Virus record (IMG/VR): IMGVR_UViG_2718217885_000015
From: a virus
Taxonomy: Duplodnaviria > Heunggongvirae > Uroviricota > Caudoviricetes
DNA length: 44,903 nucleotides
Strand: one strand, 5' to 3'
Every line of letters starts with the position of its first letter. Position 1 is the first letter of the stretch. The translations under genes and the position numbers were made by a program. This document shows positions 17,603-44,903 of the stretch, in pieces. The notes beneath the pieces are model-generated. The model did not search any database. It was given only the letters and a program-made list of their open reading frames with translations, and was not told where the DNA came from.

Positions 17603-17805
17603 AACCTCACTCCCAGCGGACGACGGCGACGTCGGGTTGTCCCCAGTACCGACTCCGCATCATTGATCGCCCGGTTAAGCTCATCCAGAGAAGCTGCCGT
17701 ATATTCAATTCTGCGACCATCTTTCTGGACAGACACCACCCGTTTACCGGTTAATAAATCAAGGCGCGCCTGACGCAGCGCCTGCAGTTCAGCGACTGTA
17801 ACCAT
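17599..17805 (-). CDS. W: Head-tail joining protein W
   Basis: 68 aa, between A and B. Confidence 0.85.
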   Translation of the reverse strand: MVTVAELQALRQARLDLLTGKRVVSVQKDGRRIEYTAASLDELNRAINDAESVLGTTRRRRRPLGVRL

Positions 17806-19717
17806 TCACTCCTCCGGACAGCTTCGCTGCCAGTTCTTTAAGGGTTGGCCGGGTCGTCTCTTCTTCCCGGGATTTTGCCAGTACAGCCAGATCAAGCTGC
17901 CAGCGTTGCACGGACACACGTAATGCCGCGTAGGCATACACCAGACAGTCCAGCGCTTCGTTACGCCGCTTTTTGTTATCCCACAGCAGACGCATCTTTC
18001 CTTTTTCCCACTTCTCCACAAGCTCTTCCGCGACCAGTTGCTGCGCTTCTGTCTGCGAAAAAATCTCCGGATCATCAGGAAAACGGATGGCATACGACGT
18101 GGCTTCATCCGCAGGCGTGGGTTCAGCGTTCATACGGGCATAGAGAATTTCTTTTGCGGTGTCCGTCCCCACTTCACACAGATACACGCCCCGCTGATTG
18201 CGGGTTTTTGGCATGGTGATCACCGGCTTGCCATAGACAGATGCGCCTTTTACCGGCAGCACCCGGAAAACACCGTGTTTTTTTGACCTCTGATAAACGA
18301 TTTCGCCATCGATCCCCCCGGTGTCCCAGCAGACACGGGAAATGGTCATTTCGGTTCCGTCTGCATGGCGGTATTTTTTGTTGATCGCCGCATCCACACG
18401 TAACAGCGTCTCTTCCTCATCGGGACGCCCCATAATGATGATTTTATCCACCAGAAAGGCTTCCTCTCCCGGAGCCCATCCCCAGACATACATCTCAAAA
18501 CGGTTTCGCTGCGAGTCAATGCCCGCCGTCAGATAAACCACCCGGGCAGGCACCGCCGCCGTGTAACGCACAACCTTATCCATCAGTACCTGGTGATCGA
18601 GTTTTTCGCCCACGGCCTCTTCCCAGGTCTCGCCCAGCGTGGTGTTCACAAAGGTTTTCAGGCCGTTGGGATCTTTCAGTGCATCCAGCCAGTCATAGAC
18701 TATCTGTACCCAGGTGGTGAACGGACTGTACGCCGTCCAGATATGGAAAGTGATGGAGCGCGGCGGCGGAATTTCATCACCCCGGGCGCAGAAAAACATC
18801 AGGCCGTCACGGGTCCACATGCCCGTGTTTTCACAGATCCACCGCCCGTTGCTCTGGTCAAGCTCAGACTGATGGATCACGCAGCCATAATGTTCACAGA
18901 GGTAGAAAACGCTTTCGGGGCTGTCCTTCTCCCATTTAAGGCCAAAAGGCGTGGATTCATCGCCAAATTTCAGATACTGCGCCTCCCCACAGTGCGGGCA
19001 GGGCACATAAAAACGCATGAAATGTGCCGACTCGTTAGCGGCTTTTTCGATCTGACAGGTGCCTTTGATTTTAGGCGTCGAGCCGCGAATGGATTTTGGC
19101 CATACAGAGCCCTCAATACGCTTATCCCCCAGCAGGGTTGGCGAGCCCTCTTTTTCGACATCCGGCTCGAACGAGGAAAGTTCGTCATAGCAGACCACGT
19201 CCACGGATTTTTCACGGTAGTTTTTGGCGGCAGCGCCGCCCAGGCACCAGAAGCCCACACCCGATGAAAAGCGTTTCAGCGTGAGAGTATTGTCACGATG
19301 TTTACGACCCAGCCATGGGGAAAGGTCTTTCAGGCATGGCACGTCCCGAATCGTCGCCTCCACGTGAGACTTCATAAAATCTTCAGCGGCAGAATCCGTA
19401 GGCTGAAAAAGCAGACTGTTTCGGGATTTATGCTCAATAAAATACCCGACCACCCCCAGCAACATCTTTGTATAGCCAACACGGGCAGATTTAATCAGAT
19501 TAACAGTGCGGATCTGATCATTCCCCATGCTGTTCATGATGGCGATCTGGAATGGCAGCGTTTTCCATTCTCCCTCACCATATGAAGATTCTTTAGGCAG
19601 ATAATAATTTTGATCAGCCCATTCAACTGGCGTCACCGGCAATGCCCTTATCAGGGGCTGTAATGCTGTTGTGACAGCGCTCATCATATTATTCAGTTGT
19701 TGCTCTGATATATTCAT
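17789..19717 (-). CDS. A: Terminase large subunit A
   Basis: Strong match to recalled lambda A (TAVEWAD.NYYLPKES, CPHCGE.QYLKFGD, TTLGETWE); likely start at MNISEQQ (19717) rather than the upstream in-frame ATG at 19774. Confidence 0.95.
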   Translation of the reverse strand: MNISEQQLNNMMSAVTTALQPLIRALPVTPVEWADQNYYLPKESSYGEGEWKTLPFQIAIMNSMGNDQIRTVNLIKSARVGYTKMLLGVVGYFIEHKSRNSLLFQPTDSAAEDFMKSHVEATIRDVPCLKDLSPWLGRKHRDNTLTLKRFSSGVGFWCLGGAAAKNYREKSVDVVCYDELSSFEPDVEKEGSPTLLGDKRIEGSVWPKSIRGSTPKIKGTCQIEKAANESAHFMRFYVPCPHCGEAQYLKFGDESTPFGLKWEKDSPESVFYLCEHYGCVIHQSELDQSNGRWICENTGMWTRDGLMFFCARGDEIPPPRSITFHIWTAYSPFTTWVQIVYDWLDALKDPNGLKTFVNTTLGETWEEAVGEKLDHQVLMDKVVRYTAAVPARVVYLTAGIDSQRNRFEMYVWGWAPGEEAFLVDKIIIMGRPDEEETLLRVDAAINKKYRHADGTEMTISRVCWDTGGIDGEIVYQRSKKHGVFRVLPVKGASVYGKPVITMPKTRNQRGVYLCEVGTDTAKEILYARMNAEPTPADEATSYAIRFPDDPEIFSQTEAQQLVAEELVEKWEKGKMRLLWDNKKRRNEALDCLVYAYAALRVSVQRWQLDLAVLAKSREEETTRPTLKELAAKLSGGVNGYSR

Positions 19718-20198
19718 CGAGTAAATCCGGTAATTTATCCCCCGCCCGCGCACACTGATTTGCCCCCTTCGCAATAAGGGTTTTCAGATGGTCAAGATGG
19801 CGCGGTGTTAAATCAGGAAACTGTCGCTGCATGGATAAAGGGATGGAATCAAGCGTACTGGATAACGCCATTGCCAGCTTACTGAGGGCAAAAATACAGA
19901 ACCCGGTGTCAATAAGTTTTCCTTTTGACACCTCATTTTTTAACTGCTGTGTAACAGCCTGTTCTGCTGTCAGTTCCCATCTGGCAATAAGCAATTTCTC
20001 CTCATAGTCGTCTTCGCTATCGCCATCAGGCACATCGTTTTTACTTCTCCTCAGATACGATATGTAAAAATCGCGCCAGGCATCCAGATCCAGTTGCCCT
20101 CTCTTATTCGATATCGGGGCACCCGGCAATTTCTGCAATCTGCGAAGCTGGCGATCGGTCAGACTTAAATGCCTGGCAACTTCAGTCTGCGTAGCCAC
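19689..20198 (-). CDS. Nu1: Terminase small subunit Nu1
   Basis: 169 aa; first gene after cos; C-terminal similarity to lambda Nu1 (FC.F.LS...LDS.PLS.QR.FP.L..RH.D.LK); N-terminal HTH. Confidence 0.85.
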   Translation of the reverse strand: MATQTEVARHLSLTDRQLRRLQKLPGAPISNKRGQLDLDAWRDFYISYLRRSKNDVPDGDSEDDYEEKLLIARWELTAEQAVTQQLKNEVSKGKLIDTGFCIFALSKLAMALSSTLDSIPLSMQRQFPDLTPRHLDHLKTLIAKGANQCARAGDKLPDLLDEYIRATTE

Positions 20199-20245
20199 TC
20201 CTCACCTCGCAAAAACTCTCACCTCACAATCACAACAAAACCGGT

Positions 20246-20392
20246 CATGTCCGGCTTACATGTCTATTTTTGTTCATGTCCGGTTCACAGAAAACCTGTT
20301 TTTATATTTTTCATATAGTTAACTTGAAGAGAAACCGGACATGGATCCCGGAAAATTTTCATAAATAGCGAAAACCCGCGAGGTCGCCGCCC
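20246..20392 (-). other. cos: cos site: cosN (AGGTCGCCGCCC on plus, 20381-20392) and cosB with three CATGTCCGG repeats
   Basis: The 12-nt sequence is the reverse complement of the lambda cohesive end GGGCGGCGACCT, and its flanks match the lambda cos flank; repeats sit at 20246-20254, 20275-20283 and inverted at 20335-20343, with an AT-rich (IHF-like) stretch between them. Confidence 0.85.
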
Positions 20393-20591
20393 CGTAACAG
20401 GCCGGATCGCCAGAAAGGACCCGAAAATGATAATAATTATCAATTAAATAAAAGTTATCTCAACCGACAAGTTCACCATGAAAGAGGACAAATAATGAGT
20501 TCGGTCTCAATGCATTAATTGATCTGCATCAAATTTAAGTAAAAACATCTTTGGACAATACAGAACACTGCAGTGAATATGGAAAAAGACA

Positions 20592-20804
20592 ATGTCATCG
20601 AAGAACAAAACCAGCAAAACAACAACCCGTAACATCCGTTTTCCCAATCACATGATTGAGCAGATCAATATCGCCCTTGAGCATAAAGGCTCCGGCAACT
20701 TTTCGGCATGGGTTATTGAAGCCTGTCGCCGGAGGCTGGCAGCAGACATAAAATGTGCCCGTCAGTTAACTGTAACAAAGAATGATACACCGTCTGCTCT
20801 GTGA
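20592..20804 (+). CDS. Small ribbon-helix-helix (CopG/Arc-like) protein
   Basis: 70-aa plus-strand ORF in the AT-rich region between cos and the lysis genes; motif NIRFPNHMIEQINIALEHKGSGNFSAWVIEACRRRL looks like an RHH fold; weak ribosome-binding site. Confidence 0.45.
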   Translation: MSSKNKTSKTTTRNIRFPNHMIEQINIALEHKGSGNFSAWVIEACRRRLAADIKCARQLTVTKNDTPSAL

Positions 20805-20949
20805 TAACTGTTCATATAACCATTTCTTTATATTGCTGAATTTACAAAAAGTCGCAGTTATTAGTCGTATTTATTCCGAATTGAAATCATCCGTCATATA
20901 AAATAAAAAAGAATAACAATAATAATCTTCTACCCTTATCAGTACCTTT

Positions 20950-20979
20950 ACTGCTGTGCTCCAACACAGCAGTTTTTTT
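20950..20979 (+). terminator. Rho-independent terminator
   Basis: Perfect 9-bp stem ACTGCTGTG/CACAGCAGT with a 6-nt loop, followed by a T7 run. Confidence 0.6.
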
Positions 20980-21603
20980 GATTATGCTCACATATTTTTC
21001 ATCCCCACCGCACTGCACATTATAACTGTTGCTTTTCAATTCAGGCTTTGTGCAGGTATGTCTGAATCTCCTCCGGGAGAGGTCTTCATCGTTATCAGCC
21101 CCAAAACACACCAGCGACACTGACAAAGAGCCTGCGAGTGCAGTTGCCCCGTTTTCGTTTTATGATGTATTCACCCAGTCAAATAATGAGCAAATTCAAT
21201 CCATGTCAGACGGCAGAGAATCATAAAATTTAACCATCGTGCTTACATAAACAATCCGATAAAGACTTAACATACTTAAAATCGCATATTGCATAAGAAT
21301 AAATAATAAGTCATCAAAAAACATCGGGCAAAACTACCGCAACTCCAGTTAAAAAGACAATATATTAATCCAGCGACCTCATTTATTATTCAGAAATGCT
21401 TAATAATAAGATATTTCCTGTTATTCCTTTATGGAGATCGGGTAACGGCTCCATGCCAGTCTTGTTGAATGGCTCAAAAAATAAGAGAATAATTCATAAC
21501 ATATATTGTAATTCAGGCTCGGTTATTTCGAATTGAATACTTGCATTAAAATCTGATAAAAAATTCGTCATAACAACAACATTCTCTTCTGCATGTGCCA
21601 TAA

Positions 21604-21632
21604 CCTGCCGTAACAACCCGGCAGGTTTTTTT
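21604..21632 (+). terminator. Rho-independent terminator
   Basis: Stem CCTGCCG/CGGCAGG followed by a T7 run. Confidence 0.5.
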
Positions 21633-21832
21633 ATTGAATAAATTTCCGGTTTCTTCCACCATCGCACCGGCCAGGCGACTATGAGGGGACAACGCCGCGC
21701 TCCGTTAACGCAGTAAACCCCGGTGTGTATCGTTTTTGATTATCCCCGCACACTCGCGCAGAGGAGTCTCCCCGTAGGGCTGCGGTCTCTGTTAATGCGG
21801 AAATACGGCGACGATACAACGCATTGAAAAAA

Positions 21833-22291
21833 CTATTTCAGGCACTGAGTACGGATATATTCCTGAAGCGTTCTCAATGCTGCCTGGTCGTTGATGATTC
21901 CGTCTCTGATACCGAGAACGTTTCGTCCAGCAACTTGAGAGAGTTCGACGCTGGCATCATTGCCCACGCGGGCGGTGGCGGTGGCTTCACGCACGGAACC
22001 TGAGCAGGTGGCGTTGATCCGCAGGCGCTTACGACCAGCGGTAACATCAGCACGCAGAGTTTCATTTTCAGCTCTCGCATCGGCTAATTCCCTCGAGTAT
22101 TTTGCATCGAGCGCAGCAACATCGTGCTGGCGCTGCTGCATATCAGTAATGGTGACGTTCGCCAGCTTCAGCTCACTGACTTTTTTATCGCGCTGCGCTT
22201 TGTAAGTGATGGCGTTATCGCGGTAATGGTTTGTTGCCAGACACAGCGCACCACAGAGCACCAGCAGAATAACGGTAAACGCGGAAAGCAT
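21833..22291 (-). CDS. Rz: Spanin inner-membrane subunit Rz
   Basis: Start at MLSAFTVILLVLCGALCLATNHYRDNAITYKAQRDK, close to recalled lambda Rz; the longer ORF call to 22504 is an upstream in-frame extension. Confidence 0.85.
   Translation of the reverse strand: MLSAFTVILLVLCGALCLATNHYRDNAITYKAQRDKKVSELKLANVTITDMQQRQHDVAALDAKYSRELADARAENETLRADVTAGRKRLRINATCSGSVREATATARVGNDASVELSQVAGRNVLGIRDGIINDQAALRTLQEYIRTQCLK
21874..22080 (-). CDS. Rz1: Spanin outer-membrane lipoprotein Rz1, embedded in Rz in the +1 frame
   Basis: Lipobox LVVSAC plus a proline-rich stretch CVKPPPPPAWAM, as in lambda Rz1; probably starts at the second Met (22065). Confidence 0.75.
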   Translation of the reverse strand: MRELKMKLCVLMLPLVVSACGSTPPAQVPCVKPPPPPAWAMMPASNSLKLLDETFSVSETESSTTRQH

Positions 22292-23294: not shown

Positions 23295-23828
23295 TTATCT
23301 GTCAATTCCCCAGCACGCCAGCGCACTTTCCTGATCTCGCCGGGATACCTGACCGTAGCAATTATTTGAGCGGATACGGCAGTCTCTGCCACCGTCCTTA
23401 ATCCACCAGCGAATCGCTTCGCAGGCACCTTTTCGATCACCTGCATTAATTCGTTTATAAAACGTCGACGGGAAACACTTACCGGGGCCAATGTTATACG
23501 GACAGAATGACGCGATCCCCGCTTTCTGGGGTTCGGTCAGCGGCACTTTGATGTTTTTCTCCACCCATGCCAGCGCCTTGTCACGTTCGATGGCGTTAAC
23601 CCGGTCGCATTTTTCCTTTGACAGCTTCATGCCAGGAATAACAGGCTTACCATCCACCCGGGTGGCTCCACGGCAGATGGTCCAGATCCCCGCACCATCA
23701 CGGTATGCCGTGGTGTGGTTACCTTCCTTTTCATCCAGAAACTGGTCGAGGATTTCAGGCGCAGGCGCACCTGCGGCAATCAGCGCCAGAACGGCAGCCG
23801 ACAGACCGTATTTGATTTTGGTGTTCAT
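23295..23828 (-). CDS. R: SAR endolysin (T4-lysozyme-like, GH24) with N-terminal signal-anchor-release domain
   Basis: Hydrophobic N-terminus (LSAAVLALIAAGAPAP) followed by the catalytic motif EGNHTTAYRDGAGIWTICRGAT (E-8aa-D-5aa-T). Confidence 0.85.
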   Translation of the reverse strand: MNTKIKYGLSAAVLALIAAGAPAPEILDQFLDEKEGNHTTAYRDGAGIWTICRGATRVDGKPVIPGMKLSKEKCDRVNAIERDKALAWVEKNIKVPLTEPQKAGIASFCPYNIGPGKCFPSTFYKRINAGDRKGACEAIRWWIKDGGRDCRIRSNNCYGQVSRRDQESALACWGIDR

Positions 23829-23956
23829 GGATATTTATCAGGATTTATCGGTTCCGAATCCCTGGATATGTTAAGTCTTCAGCCCGCCAGTGGTGGGCAC
23901 TGGTGTTTTACCTGATGGCTGAAATATATCTGACAATTCCCGTCGAGGATTTAGCA

Positions 23957-24271
23957 ATGTATAACGATGAACATAAATATACCGCCTGCATGCAGGCCAT
24001 GAATGAACAATTTAAATCAGCATTCCTTAAACTCATTCAGCAAAACCACGAAGCAGTAAAATCCATTCAGGCTGAACCGTATGGACACCTCACACCACCA
24101 ACTCTCGACATTATGTCCAGAATATTAACACCAGCCATGCTTCTACGTCTGAAAGACAATATAAATGACTGGTTAAACGAAGAATTAAACTACCTTGAAT
24201 GTGAGTGGGATCATCATTACGCCAAATCACAAAAAGAACGCATCTTCCGTCGATTATCCGGCAACAGATAA
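23957..24271 (+). CDS. Hypothetical protein (plus-strand gene inside the lysis cassette)
   Basis: 104-aa ORF with a GAGGA ribosome-binding site 7 nt upstream of the ATG; convergent with the 213-aa minus-strand ORF; no recognisable domain. Confidence 0.45.
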   Translation: MYNDEHKYTACMQAMNEQFKSAFLKLIQQNHEAVKSIQAEPYGHLTPPTLDIMSRILTPAMLLRLKDNINDWLNEELNYLECEWDHHYAKSQKERIFRRLSGNR

Positions 24272-41916: not shown

Positions 41917-43512
41917 ATGGCTGAAGCAGCAAAAAAAACTCCACAAAAGCTGAATGAAAAAAAAGGCTCAACATCGGCATCATCACTTGAGATTGTGAAT
42001 TCACGACAATCAAAAGATATTTATCTTGGATTGTGTGGATATGTTGGATGTGGCATGAGAACGATAAACAAAATTATCGAAGAGATATCCAAAGAATGGG
42101 GGTATAATGTTGTACACATCCGCATAAGTGCGCTTATGGAAAACCCATTATATTTTGAGCCAGCAGCACTGAAGGTATCCGAAAGCACACAAGTTAATAG
42201 ACATTTAAAACTCCAGGATATTGCCAATAAACTTCGTAAACATTACAAAAAAAATGAGTTGCTTGCAGAAGCTGCTATTGCAGCAATCGCAGCAGAGAAA
42301 AATAATATTGATTATAATAATGATGAATATAAAGGTACTGTCTTCATCATTGATCAATTCAAAAGGCCGGAAGAAATAGAGTTATTCAGAGTTATATATC
42401 AGCATAATTTCTATTTGTTAGGAGTTTTGCGCGATTTAGATTACCGAATTCCGAATCTCATTGATGACGAATCGACAAAGAACGACCTTCATTTAATTAT
42501 CAATATTGATAATAAATCCTCTGATCCGTATGGACAAAGAACCGGGGAGACCATTCTTGATTCAGATTTTTTTATTAAAAATAACTTCAGCCAAAAAAGT
42601 GAATTAAAGAAGAAGATTGATCGGTTTTTCGGTCTTATTCATGGCAAAAATGGTTTAACACCAACTTTTAACGAGAAAGGTATGTATGCTGCCTTTTCAA
42701 CATCATTACAATCAGCTTGTTTATCACGTCAAGTAGGGGCTGCACTGTTTGATGATGAAGGGAATTTGCTTGCCGTGGGTAAGAACGACGTACCTAAAGC
42801 TGGTGGCGGGTTGTATAGCAGTGATGATTTTGATAACGATCATCGATGCGTTCACAAAAGTGGTAAGTGTTATAATGATGCAAACAAGCTAAAAATTAAA
42901 GACCGTATAAAAAGCATATTATCAACCGAAGTAAGAACTGTATTAGGTATTTCCGCAGGACAAACTGTTGCCGATATTAATATAACACGACTTCTAAACA
43001 AATTAGATAATATTGCAGAAGGCATTTACAAAGACAGCAAAATATCAAGTGTAATGGAGTACTCCAGATCAATTCATGCTGAAATGGACGTCATTACATC
43101 AATGGCTAGAAAACAAAACGGCGATACTAAAGATAAAATTCTTTTTACGACAACCTATCCCTGCCACAACTGTGCAAGGCATATTGTCGCAGCTGGAATA
43201 AAAAAAGTAGTATATATAGAGCCATTTGATAAAAGCCTTGCTCTTGATCTGCATAATGATGCAATAACAAAGAACGAAGAATCTTCCAAAGTAATATTTT
43301 GTGATTTTGAGGGGGTATCACCCCGCCGCTACCATAAATTTTTTAGACCAACGGATGAACGTAAAGATGATAAAACAGGGGCTGCAAATAAATTTAATGC
43401 TCGCTACAAAAATCATATAGATGTTCAATATCTTGATGATTATAGAAAGTATGAGACTGTTGTAGCTAAGAAATTTATAAACGAGATTGCTAAACCAGAG
43501 TCTCAGCCATAA
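41917..43512 (+). CDS. Two-domain deoxycytidylate/dCTP deaminase-like protein (AvcD/DcdV-like): N-terminal kinase-like region plus C-terminal CMP/dCMP deaminase domain
   Basis: 531 aa; C-terminal zinc-binding deaminase signature HAEMDVI...(26 aa)...PCHNCARHIVAAGIKKVVYIEP, preceded by ACLSRQVGAALFDDEGNLLAVGKND; N-terminal glycine-rich GLCGYVGCGMRT and Walker-B-like VFIIDQF; markedly AT-rich against the flanking phage DNA. Confidence 0.7.
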   Translation: MAEAAKKTPQKLNEKKGSTSASSLEIVNSRQSKDIYLGLCGYVGCGMRTINKIIEEISKEWGYNVVHIRISALMENPLYFEPAALKVSESTQVNRHLKLQDIANKLRKHYKKNELLAEAAIAAIAAEKNNIDYNNDEYKGTVFIIDQFKRPEEIELFRVIYQHNFYLLGVLRDLDYRIPNLIDDESTKNDLHLIINIDNKSSDPYGQRTGETILDSDFFIKNNFSQKSELKKKIDRFFGLIHGKNGLTPTFNEKGMYAAFSTSLQSACLSRQVGAALFDDEGNLLAVGKNDVPKAGGGLYSSDDFDNDHRCVHKSGKCYNDANKLKIKDRIKSILSTEVRTVLGISAGQTVADINITRLLNKLDNIAEGIYKDSKISSVMEYSRSIHAEMDVITSMARKQNGDTKDKILFTTTYPCHNCARHIVAAGIKKVVYIEPFDKSLALDLHNDAITKNEESSKVIFCDFEGVSPRRYHKFFRPTDERKDDKTGAANKFNARYKNHIDVQYLDDYRKYETVVAKKFINEIAKPESQP

Positions 43513-43518
43513 CTGTTT

Positions 43519-43557
43519 CCACTCCTTATTTCTGTAAGGATAAGGAGTGGTGTTTTT
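43519..43557. terminator. Bidirectional terminator between the convergent deaminase and integrase genes
   Basis: Perfect 11-bp stem CCACTCCTTAT/ATAAGGAGTGG followed by TGTTTTT. Confidence 0.6.
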
Positions 43558-43664
43558 ATAAGTATAATGACCGTCTCTTCATAAATCGGCAAATCGAAAT
43601 ATCAGCAACCAGTTAATTATAAGCCAAGAATCATTACTATTTTCTTACTCTGTATGTCTATTCA

Positions 43665-44903
43665 TTATTCAATAGGCTGTCTGTTGGAACCTAAATTAGT
43701 GTAAGTAAGAATCGAATCAACCCTATCCCACCATGCCTGATAGGCTTTACGCTGTTCTTCTAGATAATCGCTCTTATCATAAACTTGCCATACCCCTGGC
43801 AGTTTATGACCGAGCATTATTTCAGCAATATGAGGCGCAGTAAGATCAGAAAAGTTTGTTCGTGCTGTTCGTCTCAAATCATGAAGAGACCAATGAGGAA
43901 ATTGATACCCCAAACGCCGCCATGCGTACTGCATTAAATTGTAAGGCAGCGACTGCAATGATGTCCGACCAACTGGCTCCTTGCTTCCTTCCTTGGTAAA
44001 AAGCATATCGGAACCGTTGTTCATAGAGATAACGTATTTTATAAGCTCTTCAACCGGTTCAATAATGGGGCGCTTTAGCGGTTCGCCTGTTATATCACCT
44101 GTCTTATGTCGTTCTGGCGGTACAGTCCATACCTTATTAATGAAATCAAAATCATCCATCCTGGCAGTAATCAGCTCTGAACTACGACAGCCGAAATGCA
44201 GCAATAGTTTAATGAAGGCCCGGTATTTGGGAACCATTCGAGAACCATCGATCGCAGCATAAAGGATTTTAATTTCATCGTGTGTCAGAAACCGTTTCTT
44301 CTGACCTTTACGGATATCCATATCTTTACCCGTGATATCCGACAGAGGGCGAGTTTCAATGAGCTTTCTCTTATACGCCCAGACATGGGCCTGCTTTGCG
44401 TTAATTAGCAATCGGTCTGCTATTGCTGGAGTCTTAGTGCTAAGAGGCTCCAGGACCTCTAACCAATCATGCAATGTAGCTACATCGTGAGGGATAATCC
44501 CGATTTTAGAGAACAGGTGCAGTTCAAATGAGCGGAGTATCTGCTCAGAACCTTTTTTATTTTTTACACAATATGCGTCATACCAGGCACGGATCACAGA
44601 CTCCACCGTCATGGCTTCAGTAGCTTTGCGTTTTTCTGCCTGCTTGACCAATCGTGGATTGCGGTTTGACTCGAGTTCACCACGAAGACGGATAACTTCT
44701 TCTCTGGCCTCTTTTAGTCCAGTTGCCGGGTAAGTTCCGATATCAAGACGCTCACCTTTCCCTGCCCATTGATAACGATATTGGAACACTACGCGACCTT
44801 TCGGTGATACTCTGACAGACAGACCATCCCGATCTGATTTAACCAAAACCTTATCACGTTCCTTTCCAACGACTGAACGCAACCACGCATCAGAAAGCGC
44901 CAT
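43665..44903 (-). CDS. int: P4-type tyrosine integrase
   Basis: 412 aa; N-terminal MALSDAWLRS...GLSVRVSPKGRVVFQYRYQW typical of P4-family integrases; C-terminal catalytic region (HDLRRT...GH...Y); ATG at the last base of the window, so complete but with no upstream sequence. Confidence 0.9.
   Translation of the reverse strand: MALSDAWLRSVVGKERDKVLVKSDRDGLSVRVSPKGRVVFQYRYQWAGKGERLDIGTYPATGLKEAREEVIRLRGELESNRNPRLVKQAEKRKATEAMTVESVIRAWYDAYCVKNKKGSEQILRSFELHLFSKIGIIPHDVATLHDWLEVLEPLSTKTPAIADRLLINAKQAHVWAYKRKLIETRPLSDITGKDMDIRKGQKKRFLTHDEIKILYAAIDGSRMVPKYRAFIKLLLHFGCRSSELITARMDDFDFINKVWTVPPERHKTGDITGEPLKRPIIEPVEELIKYVISMNNGSDMLFTKEGSKEPVGRTSLQSLPYNLMQYAWRRLGYQFPHWSLHDLRRTARTNFSDLTAPHIAEIMLGHKLPGVWQVYDKSDYLEEQRKAYQAWWDRVDSILTYTNLGSNRQPIE

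Follow-up and report, generated by a model that had tools for sequence, protein, structure and literature searches.

In the 44,903-bp stretch analysed here (in the following called the window) the phage genes are located on the minus strand, among them the genes for the two subunits of a terminase, with terL overlapping the 3' end of terS (Table 1). The large subunit is of the gpA type, with Pfam matches to GpA_ATPase and GpA_nuclease at E-values of 7e-55 and 8e-72, respectively. Judged from the sequence, the region from 20199 to 20422 on the minus strand is probably the cos site of a lambda-like prophage whose cosB and TerS DNA-binding domain differ from those of lambda. Phage coordinates (bp) are given here as 20393 minus the window coordinate. 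Past cosN, at a distance of 200 bp, a gene of the YlcI/YnfO family (DUF3950, 70 aa; 20592-20804, plus strand) is encoded on the other strand than the late genes. The Stx1a prophage of E. coli strain 08-00022 has such a gene annotated in the corresponding position next to terS; for the other relatives examined, no DUF3950 gene was called there.

The comparison with a non-stx lambdoid prophage of E. coli strain 09-00049 (L115) covered 20 kb, over which the window is collinear with this prophage and matches it to 100%. The Stx1a prophage of strain 08-00022 was considered as the identity of the window and rejected; it holds an identical cos/cosB segment, and the 100% match to this strain is limited to these 301 bp. 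Since TerL is 66% and the portal protein 61% identical to lambda, the window prophage is, by the divergence of these proteins, a separate lambda-like lineage rather than lambda after a recent swap.

Table 1. Features of the packaging region, in window coordinates
Feature	Position	Strand	Remarks
terL	17789..19717	-	gpA-type large terminase, 642 aa; Pfam GpA_ATPase and GpA_nuclease
terS	19689..20198	-	Nu1-type small terminase, 169 aa, GTG start; Pfam PF07471; RefSeq WP_000235436.1
Predicted winged-HTH DNA-binding domain, TerS residues 1 to ~55	20034-20198	-	AlphaFold2 model
Degenerate forward copy CATGACCGGTT	20239..20249	-	overlaps the third site, the two forming a near-palindrome (inverted repeat I7)
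Third predicted TerS site CATGTCCGGCT	20246..20256	+	phage bp 137-147; R2 orientation, 29 bp beyond R2
R2-equivalent predicted TerS site	20275..20285	+	phage bp 108-118; CATGTCCGGTT on the plus strand, inverted versus R3
I1-equivalent IHF-like site TTTCATATAGTTA	20309..20321	+	phage bp 72-84; two mismatches to WATCAANNNNTTR
R3-equivalent predicted TerS site CATGTCCGGTT	20333..20343	-	phage bp 50-60; exact repeat; R3 of lambda/21 at bp 50-65
I2-equivalent AT-rich spacer	20348..20375	-	phage bp 18-45; identical to lambda
cosN, cohesive-end sequence GGGCGGCGACCT	20381..20392	-	identical to lambda; sole exact match in the window
cosQ GGGTCCT, packaging-termination subsite	20416..20422	-	the phage 21 record OL657228 gives this heptamer as cosQ

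The part of the cos site that would be cut is that of lambda. An alignment with the left ends of lambda, 21 and N15 revealed that phage bp 1-45 are identical to lambda at all positions, which bears out the initial annotation, where cosN and its immediate flank had been described as lambda-like. The cosQ heptamer precedes cosN by 23 bp, as it does in lambda and 21, and is invariant across 50 distinct cos sequences that belong to the subtype of the window. In megablast, the identity to lambda-like phages and to the majority of E. coli genomes ends at 20348, where I2 borders on cosB. For lambda, the role of I2 has been described (PMC4856287).

Beyond this boundary a repeat different from that of lambda is found. 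On both strands of the window, exact CATGTCCGG occurs only three times, at 20246-20254 (+), 20275-20283 (+) and 20335-20343 (-), and all copies are located between cosN and terS within about 100 bp. In phage orientation these are a forward copy at bp 50-58 and two inverted copies at bp 110-118 and bp 139-147. A random sequence is expected to contain ~0.34 exact copies per window (2 x 44,903 / 4^9), therefore three copies in 98 bp are not due to chance. The sites can be extended to TCCATGTCCGGTTTCT, TTCATGTCCGGTTCAC and GTCATGTCCGGCTTAC. The R sequence of lambda (CGTTTCC...) is absent, so that the earlier observation of three repeats in place of the lambda R sequence holds.

The R3-equivalent and the inverted R2-equivalent flank the IHF-like site, which is the layout of a lambda-type cosB. 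The IHF-like site lies on the same strand and at the corresponding position as I1 of lambda and the annotated I1 of 21 (bp 74-86), 2 bp closer to cosN than both; lambda I1 shows the same number of mismatches to the IHF consensus WATCAANNNNTTR, and the relatives have 0-1 mismatch to it at bp 72-73. Like cosQ, the ATGTCCGGTT portion of R3 is invariant in the 50 distinct cos sequences of this subtype; their flanks and spacers vary. Furthermore, the distance from R3 to R2 is 56-57 bp in all enterobacterial relatives, although the spacers diverge.

Of the exact copies, the third (bp 137-147) is oriented like R2 and unlike R1 of lambda and 21, and no R1 in R3 orientation was found among them. This third site is present in PhiR12_1, in the Enterobacter locus L026 and in most IMG/VR relatives; several relatives lack it and have R3 and R2 alone. 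A copy with one mismatch, CATGACCGG at 20241-20249 (-) (bp 144-152), lies within the degenerate forward copy listed in Table 1. This degenerate copy is probably incidental, because it is not conserved in L026. Next to it, the plus strand has a tandem direct repeat, CTCACCTC(G/A)CAA, at 20201-20229, its copies being spaced by 17 bp. Read on the phage strand as TTG(C/T)GAGGTGAG, this repeat provides two Shine-Dalgarno-like GAGGTGA sequences just upstream of the GTG of terS.

Lambda and the window thus share cosQ, cosN and bp 1-45, an IHF-like site flanked by R3 (about bp 50-60) and an inverted R2, a terS start about 195 bp from the end, the Nu1-type C-terminal part of TerS and a gpA-type TerL. 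They differ in the R sites, which are CGTTTCC(T/G)TTCT in lambda and CATGTCCGG(T/C)T in the window, with R3 of the window located 2 bp nearer to cosN, and in the DNA-binding domain, since the domain of gpNu1 has no detectable similarity to residues 1-48 of the window TerS. The sequence features of the packaging specificity shared by lambda, 434 and phi80 are not found here: both the lambda R sites and a recognizable gpNu1-type recognition helix are lacking.

The small subunit passes the Pfam Phage_Nu1 model (PF07471) with 67.9 bits against a cut-off of 30 (E=1e-18), and this match covers only TerS residues 49-150, aligned to profile positions 62-163. BLASTP with gp1 of phage 21 gives an alignment confined to residues 64-166. 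For residues 1-48, Pfam and BLASTP detected no sequence similarity to the lambda or 21 domain, and phmmer and profile searches of PDB sequences, with TerS as well as with the N-terminal domain, returned nothing meaningful. The N-terminus had initially been described as diverged; since the Pfam match starts at residue 49 and the BLASTP alignment at residue 64, this description understates the difference for the first ~48 residues.

The AlphaFold2 model of TerS, built with 24 homologues (mean pLDDT 77), shows three helices, at residues 4-10, 15-22 and 38-55, with a loop or wing ahead of the last one and a pLDDT of about 80 in the N-terminal domain. The best Foldseek matches in the PDB were MerR-type winged-HTH proteins, excisionases and lambda TerS residues 1-98 (6hn7_B), with E-values of 0.8-1.7, which are not significant. 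The superposition with 6hn7_B has an rmsd of 2.5 A over 58 columns (probability 0.75, TM 0.58 on the target). A comparison of the window-type and lambda-type domain families with hhalign was weak (15% probability); it aligned the HTH motifs in a register in which lambda residue n corresponds to TerS residue n-1. Thus, according to the model, the N-terminal domain probably has the same fold class as lambda TerS, with sequence similarity that is undetectable.

Phage 21 has the second characterised packaging specificity among lambda-like phages, and it might be possible that the repeats are R sites of the 21 type and that this cos has the known packaging specificity of 21. Phage 21 shares cosQ, cosN and the tripartite cosB layout with the window. 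In its annotation, R3 is AATCGTGTCGGTACTT (bp 50-65), I1 is located at bp 74-86, R2 is the reverse complement of TTTCATGTCGGACCTT (bp 107-122) and R1 is TTTCATGTCGGGCCTTG (bp 150-166). The alignment of the window with the lambda and 21 cos regions, proposed at the outset as a check, places the first two repeats of the window at the positions of R3 and R2. In addition, the R cores of 21 (R2, R1) are CATGTCGG compared to CATGTCCGG in the window, so that both start with the same six bases, CATGTC, and under the weak hhalign register Arg21 of 21 aligns with Arg20 of the window. However, the 21 core continues as CATGTCGG-N-CC and that of the window as CATGTCCGG-Y-T; the one extra C in the window displaces the 3' half-site, and there are also differences in the flanks (GGNCCTT versus CGGYT). 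R3 of the window is also located 2-3 bp closer to cosN than R3 of 21. The window sites do not follow the full R sequence of 21, (C/T)C(A/G)TGTCGG-N-(C/A)CTT. The 21 gp1 carries a lambda-like domain and is 53% identical to lambda Nu1 overall, whereas the window TerS has no such domain, the similarity to gp1 being limited to the BLASTP alignment given above. Furthermore, relatives with the same domain as the window use TTCCGG, unlike 21. Since the domain sequence is unrelated and the half-site shifted, we consider a 21-type specificity unlikely. By its sequence, the specificity of the window is likely distinct from that of 21; we do not put it more strongly because CATGTCCGG is close to the 21 core CATGTCGG.

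If the repeats are the binding sites of this TerS, they should change together with its DNA-binding domain. The scan of the genome collection returned 15 loci, and in the scan of IMG/VR 80 loci were kept, all near-identical to the window; because of this near-identity the IMG/VR loci were used for conservation and were no help with co-variation. The set analysed for co-variation comprises 17 loci with a MATQ-type domain from E. coli, Klebsiella, Salmonella, Citrobacter, Enterobacter and Pseudomonas. Sites with a TCCGGTT core were found upstream of terS in all 17, next to upstream neighbour genes that vary. The enterobacterial loci have R3 and an inverted R2 around an IHF consensus, with the third copy in some loci only. 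The sequence anatomy, the positions, the conservation and this co-variation are direct observations.

The sites fall into two types that correspond to one residue of the protein. Arg20 is found with ATGTCCGG (G-TCCGG) in six of six loci, namely the window, PhiR12_1, Citrobacter L025, Enterobacter L026, Salmonella L029, and L030. Asp, Asn, Thr or Ser at residue 20 is found with TTCCGG in all 11 remaining loci (Klebsiella L021, E. coli L022, Salmonella L023 and L024, the loci L028 and L031, and five from Pseudomonas), where the sites read (A/C/G)(T/C)TTCCGG. Residue 20 is the sole position in the predicted recognition helix that separates the loci with G sites from those with T sites without exception. 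The co-variation of Arg20 with G is consistent with recognition of this base; the G- and T-type domains look like two clades, so that statistically the association is weak and might correspond to a single coordinated change. At R3 bp 56 lambda has a T and 21 a G, which in C(G/A)T(T/G)TC is the place corresponding to the varying base, and in the weak hhalign register TerS residue 20 aligns with Asn21 of lambda and Arg21 of 21. Genetics from the Feiss laboratory have assigned the discrimination at bp 56 to residue 24 (PMC4669245), and for this reason the parallel with lambda and 21 at residue 20 is only a lead.

Some loci differ from this pattern. Pseudomonas L013-L017 have 43% TerS identity, the same MATQ domain and a quite different end sequence. 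Together with L031 they contain one (C/T)TTCCGGTTCC site, which precedes the start codon of terS by about 20 bp, without an IHF site or an inverted copy, which resembles the 'simple cosB' of N15. In Escherichia ruysiae (L018, 1290-1560) a T-type cos was found, with CATTTCCGG as R3 and the cosN variant GGGTGACGACCT; the terS frame from the expected start reads MVT followed by a stop, and this gene is probably a pseudogene.

N15, Monarch and Gifsy-1 also combine lambda-like cohesive ends with an alternative cosB and TerS recognition, and Monarch and Gifsy-1 share the order R3-I1-R2-R1. The N15/Monarch repeats GGTTGTTGT and the LLNKSDMASS-type domain were found in L008-L012 and not in the window. 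In E. albertii L008 and Escherichia sp. L009 (~1201-1400; P0056, P0060, P0069) the C-terminal part of TerS is at least 71% identical to that of the window, and the N-terminal domain is of the N15/Monarch type (LLNKSDMASSIGISVQAF...), next to GGTTGTTGT / ACAACAACC repeats and a lambda cosN. This combination of a window-like C-terminal domain with an N15/Monarch-type domain beside Monarch-type repeats is a second association of domain and site, independent of that at residue 20, and suggests that domain and cosB move as a module. Gifsy-1 has AGATCC(G/T)TTC repeats and a lambda-like domain, and neither matches the window. A Gifsy-1 type had been suggested by the cosN variant GGGCGGCAGCGT of Salmonella L023 and was rejected, since Gifsy-1 itself (NC_010392) has a lambda-like domain (MNVNKKKLAEIF...) with AGATCC repeats.

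This cosN variant occurs in Salmonella L023 (670-800) as well as in Gifsy-1 L027 (268-450). In L023 it is paired with CATTTCCGG and a MATQ domain and in L027 with AGATCC repeats and a lambda-like domain; being found with two unrelated types of cosB and TerS domain, it indicates that cosN and cosB assort independently. Another R-site type that apparently is uncharacterised was seen in Serratia proteamaculans (L019) and Cedecea sp. (L020) at 1000-1245, where lambda-like domains (MNVTKAQLADLFEVSTRTITTWQ...) are located beside CACTTCC(C/T) repeats in an R3 / inverted R2 / R1 layout.

Binding of the repeats by TerS, bending by IHF, cutting at cosN and a specificity distinct from lambda and 21 are what we infer for this site. 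In the mechanism we propose, TerL would nick a cosN identical to that of lambda, with cosQ and the I2 spacer being those of lambda as well. The specificity of initiation would be set by the different cosB, consisting of the R3-equivalent, the IHF-like bend site, the inverted R2-equivalent and the third, inverted copy. An IHF-induced hairpin, as in lambda, could join R3 and R2 for a TerS dimer, and this dimer would anchor TerL on cosN. In this family of TerS proteins, residue 20 of the helix appears to read the base 5' of TCCGG, with Arg reading G in the window and Asp, Asn, Thr or Ser reading T.

The cos type is common in E. coli, including pathogenic strains, and not rare: 1,148 of 5,426 complete E. 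coli genomes (~21%) contain the 301-bp cos/cosB segment over 80% or more of its length. Among the matches listed, four of the seven full-length matches have it at three places per genome. Relatives of the DNA-binding domain of the window TerS are encoded by 462 IMG/VR stretches. The closest phage records are PhiR12_1 to PhiR12_5, with 96.8% identity in the cos region and 99.4% in TerS, and these records name K-12 or E. coli C as host. Since lab strains are named as hosts of the PhiR12 phages and since Sp4, with the same cos, was found packaged (PMC2669165), the cos of the window is likely functional.

The site might also be a relic, the decayed cos of a defective prophage that has lost packaging. 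STEC genomes contain many defective lambdoid prophages (PMC2669165), and at least one gene here, the antirepressor in the lysis region of the L115 prophage, is frameshifted. Against this, the annotation gives terS, terL and the genes for head and tail as intact, and all subsites are intact and conserved over the 50 distinct sequences. Together with the wide distribution of this cos type in complete E. coli genomes and the existence of the PhiR12 phage records, this makes decay a very unlikely explanation. The least probable reading, to which we give hardly any weight, is that the repeats are operators of another regulator, such as the divergent YlcI/YnfO gene 200 bp beyond cosN on the opposite strand, or terminator hairpins, two repeats lying in terminator-like hairpins followed by T runs: the promoter and terminator scan gave hits at the level of the shuffled background (three terminator-like hits versus 1.3 +/- 1.0 in shuffles, thus no enrichment), Rfam had 0 matches in the window from 19900 to 21900, the upstream neighbours vary (DUF1378, PPC, Peptidase_C10, lysis genes) while the repeats track the type of the TerS domain, and the positions relative to cosN and the IHF-like site are those of lambda R3 and R2.

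In 2015 the Feiss laboratory counted only three documented packaging specificities of lambda-like phages, those of lambda (with 434 and phi80), 21 and N15; Monarch has been proposed to share the N15 specificity, and Gifsy-1 is a lambda-like phage with a tripartite cosB (PMC4669245, PMC4856287, PMC9026076). Part of the sequence described here has been published before. In Fig. S8 of Asadulghani et al. 2009 (PMC2669165), the cos regions and Nu1 of the prophages Sp4 and Sp14 of O157:H7 Sakai are aligned to lambda, and in the part available as figure text the cos through '...TTTTCCGGGATCCATGT' and the Nu1 sequence 'MATQTEVARHLSLTDRQLRRLQKLPGAPISNKRGQ...' are the same as in the window. The figure marks cosQ, cosN and the IHF site; its text ends at the start of R3 and carries no description of the repeats, of cosB or of a specificity class. 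The same study found Sp4, in which nu1 is disrupted, to be packaged, and inferred that the terminase of Sp14 packages Sp4. In the open-access papers searched, no description of the repeats was found. The cos and Nu1 sequence has thus been published since 2009 and is uncharacterised as a specificity class.

The initial annotation had interpreted the region as a packaging-specificity swap on a lambda-like backbone, and this interpretation stands in part. The cosB repeats and the TerS domain do differ from those of lambda and co-vary across genera, and the same C-terminal domain is found with an N15/Monarch domain beside Monarch-type repeats. The backbone is a separate lambda-like lineage by its TerL and portal protein and not lambda after a recent swap. 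The sequence is also not novel, as far as the Sp4/Sp14 figure text of 2009 covers it; a specificity distinct from 21 is no more than likely, with a core one base off, and the third repeat is in R2 and not in R1 orientation.

For the wider proposal, that the MATQ domain and the TCCGGTT-core repeats form a further specificity, insulated from lambda, 21, N15/Monarch and Gifsy-1 and divided into Arg20-G and Asp/Asn/Thr/Ser20-T sub-specificities, we see about even chances. It would add at least one specificity to the three documented ones and would leave the known mechanism unchanged. Which of the co-resident prophages can make use of one another's terminase depends on packaging specificity, and STEC genomes carry several lambdoid prophages with the cos type of the window. 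Since about one fifth of the complete E. coli genomes contain this type, often in several STEC prophages, the proposed specificity, if true, would define which prophages, including Stx1 and defective ones, package each other's DNA. Its recognition elements would help to predict the mobilisation of defective and toxin-carrying prophages, which is the kind of mobilisation inferred earlier for Sp4 and Sp14 (PMC2669165). The correspondence of Arg20 with G and of Asp, Asn, Thr or Ser20 with T would amount to a simple recognition rule, comparable with the mapped discrimination of lambda and 21 at R3 bp 56.

Several small open reading frames overlap the packaging site. In the window, frames at 20169-20318 (+) and 20285-20443 (-) span cosN and cosB, and in the PhiR12_1 record (L001, 1580-1702) a 'hypothetical protein' of 40 aa is annotated across cosB. 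We take them as most likely spurious gene calls, the packaging site being non-coding. In the L115 prophage, for features of which the coordinates 42917-44512 and 23452-24022 are given, an anti-phage dCTP deaminase gene adjoins the integrase, a tRNA-Arg/tRNA-Ile cluster is present, and a DNA methyltransferase is located at the place where Stx phages have stx.
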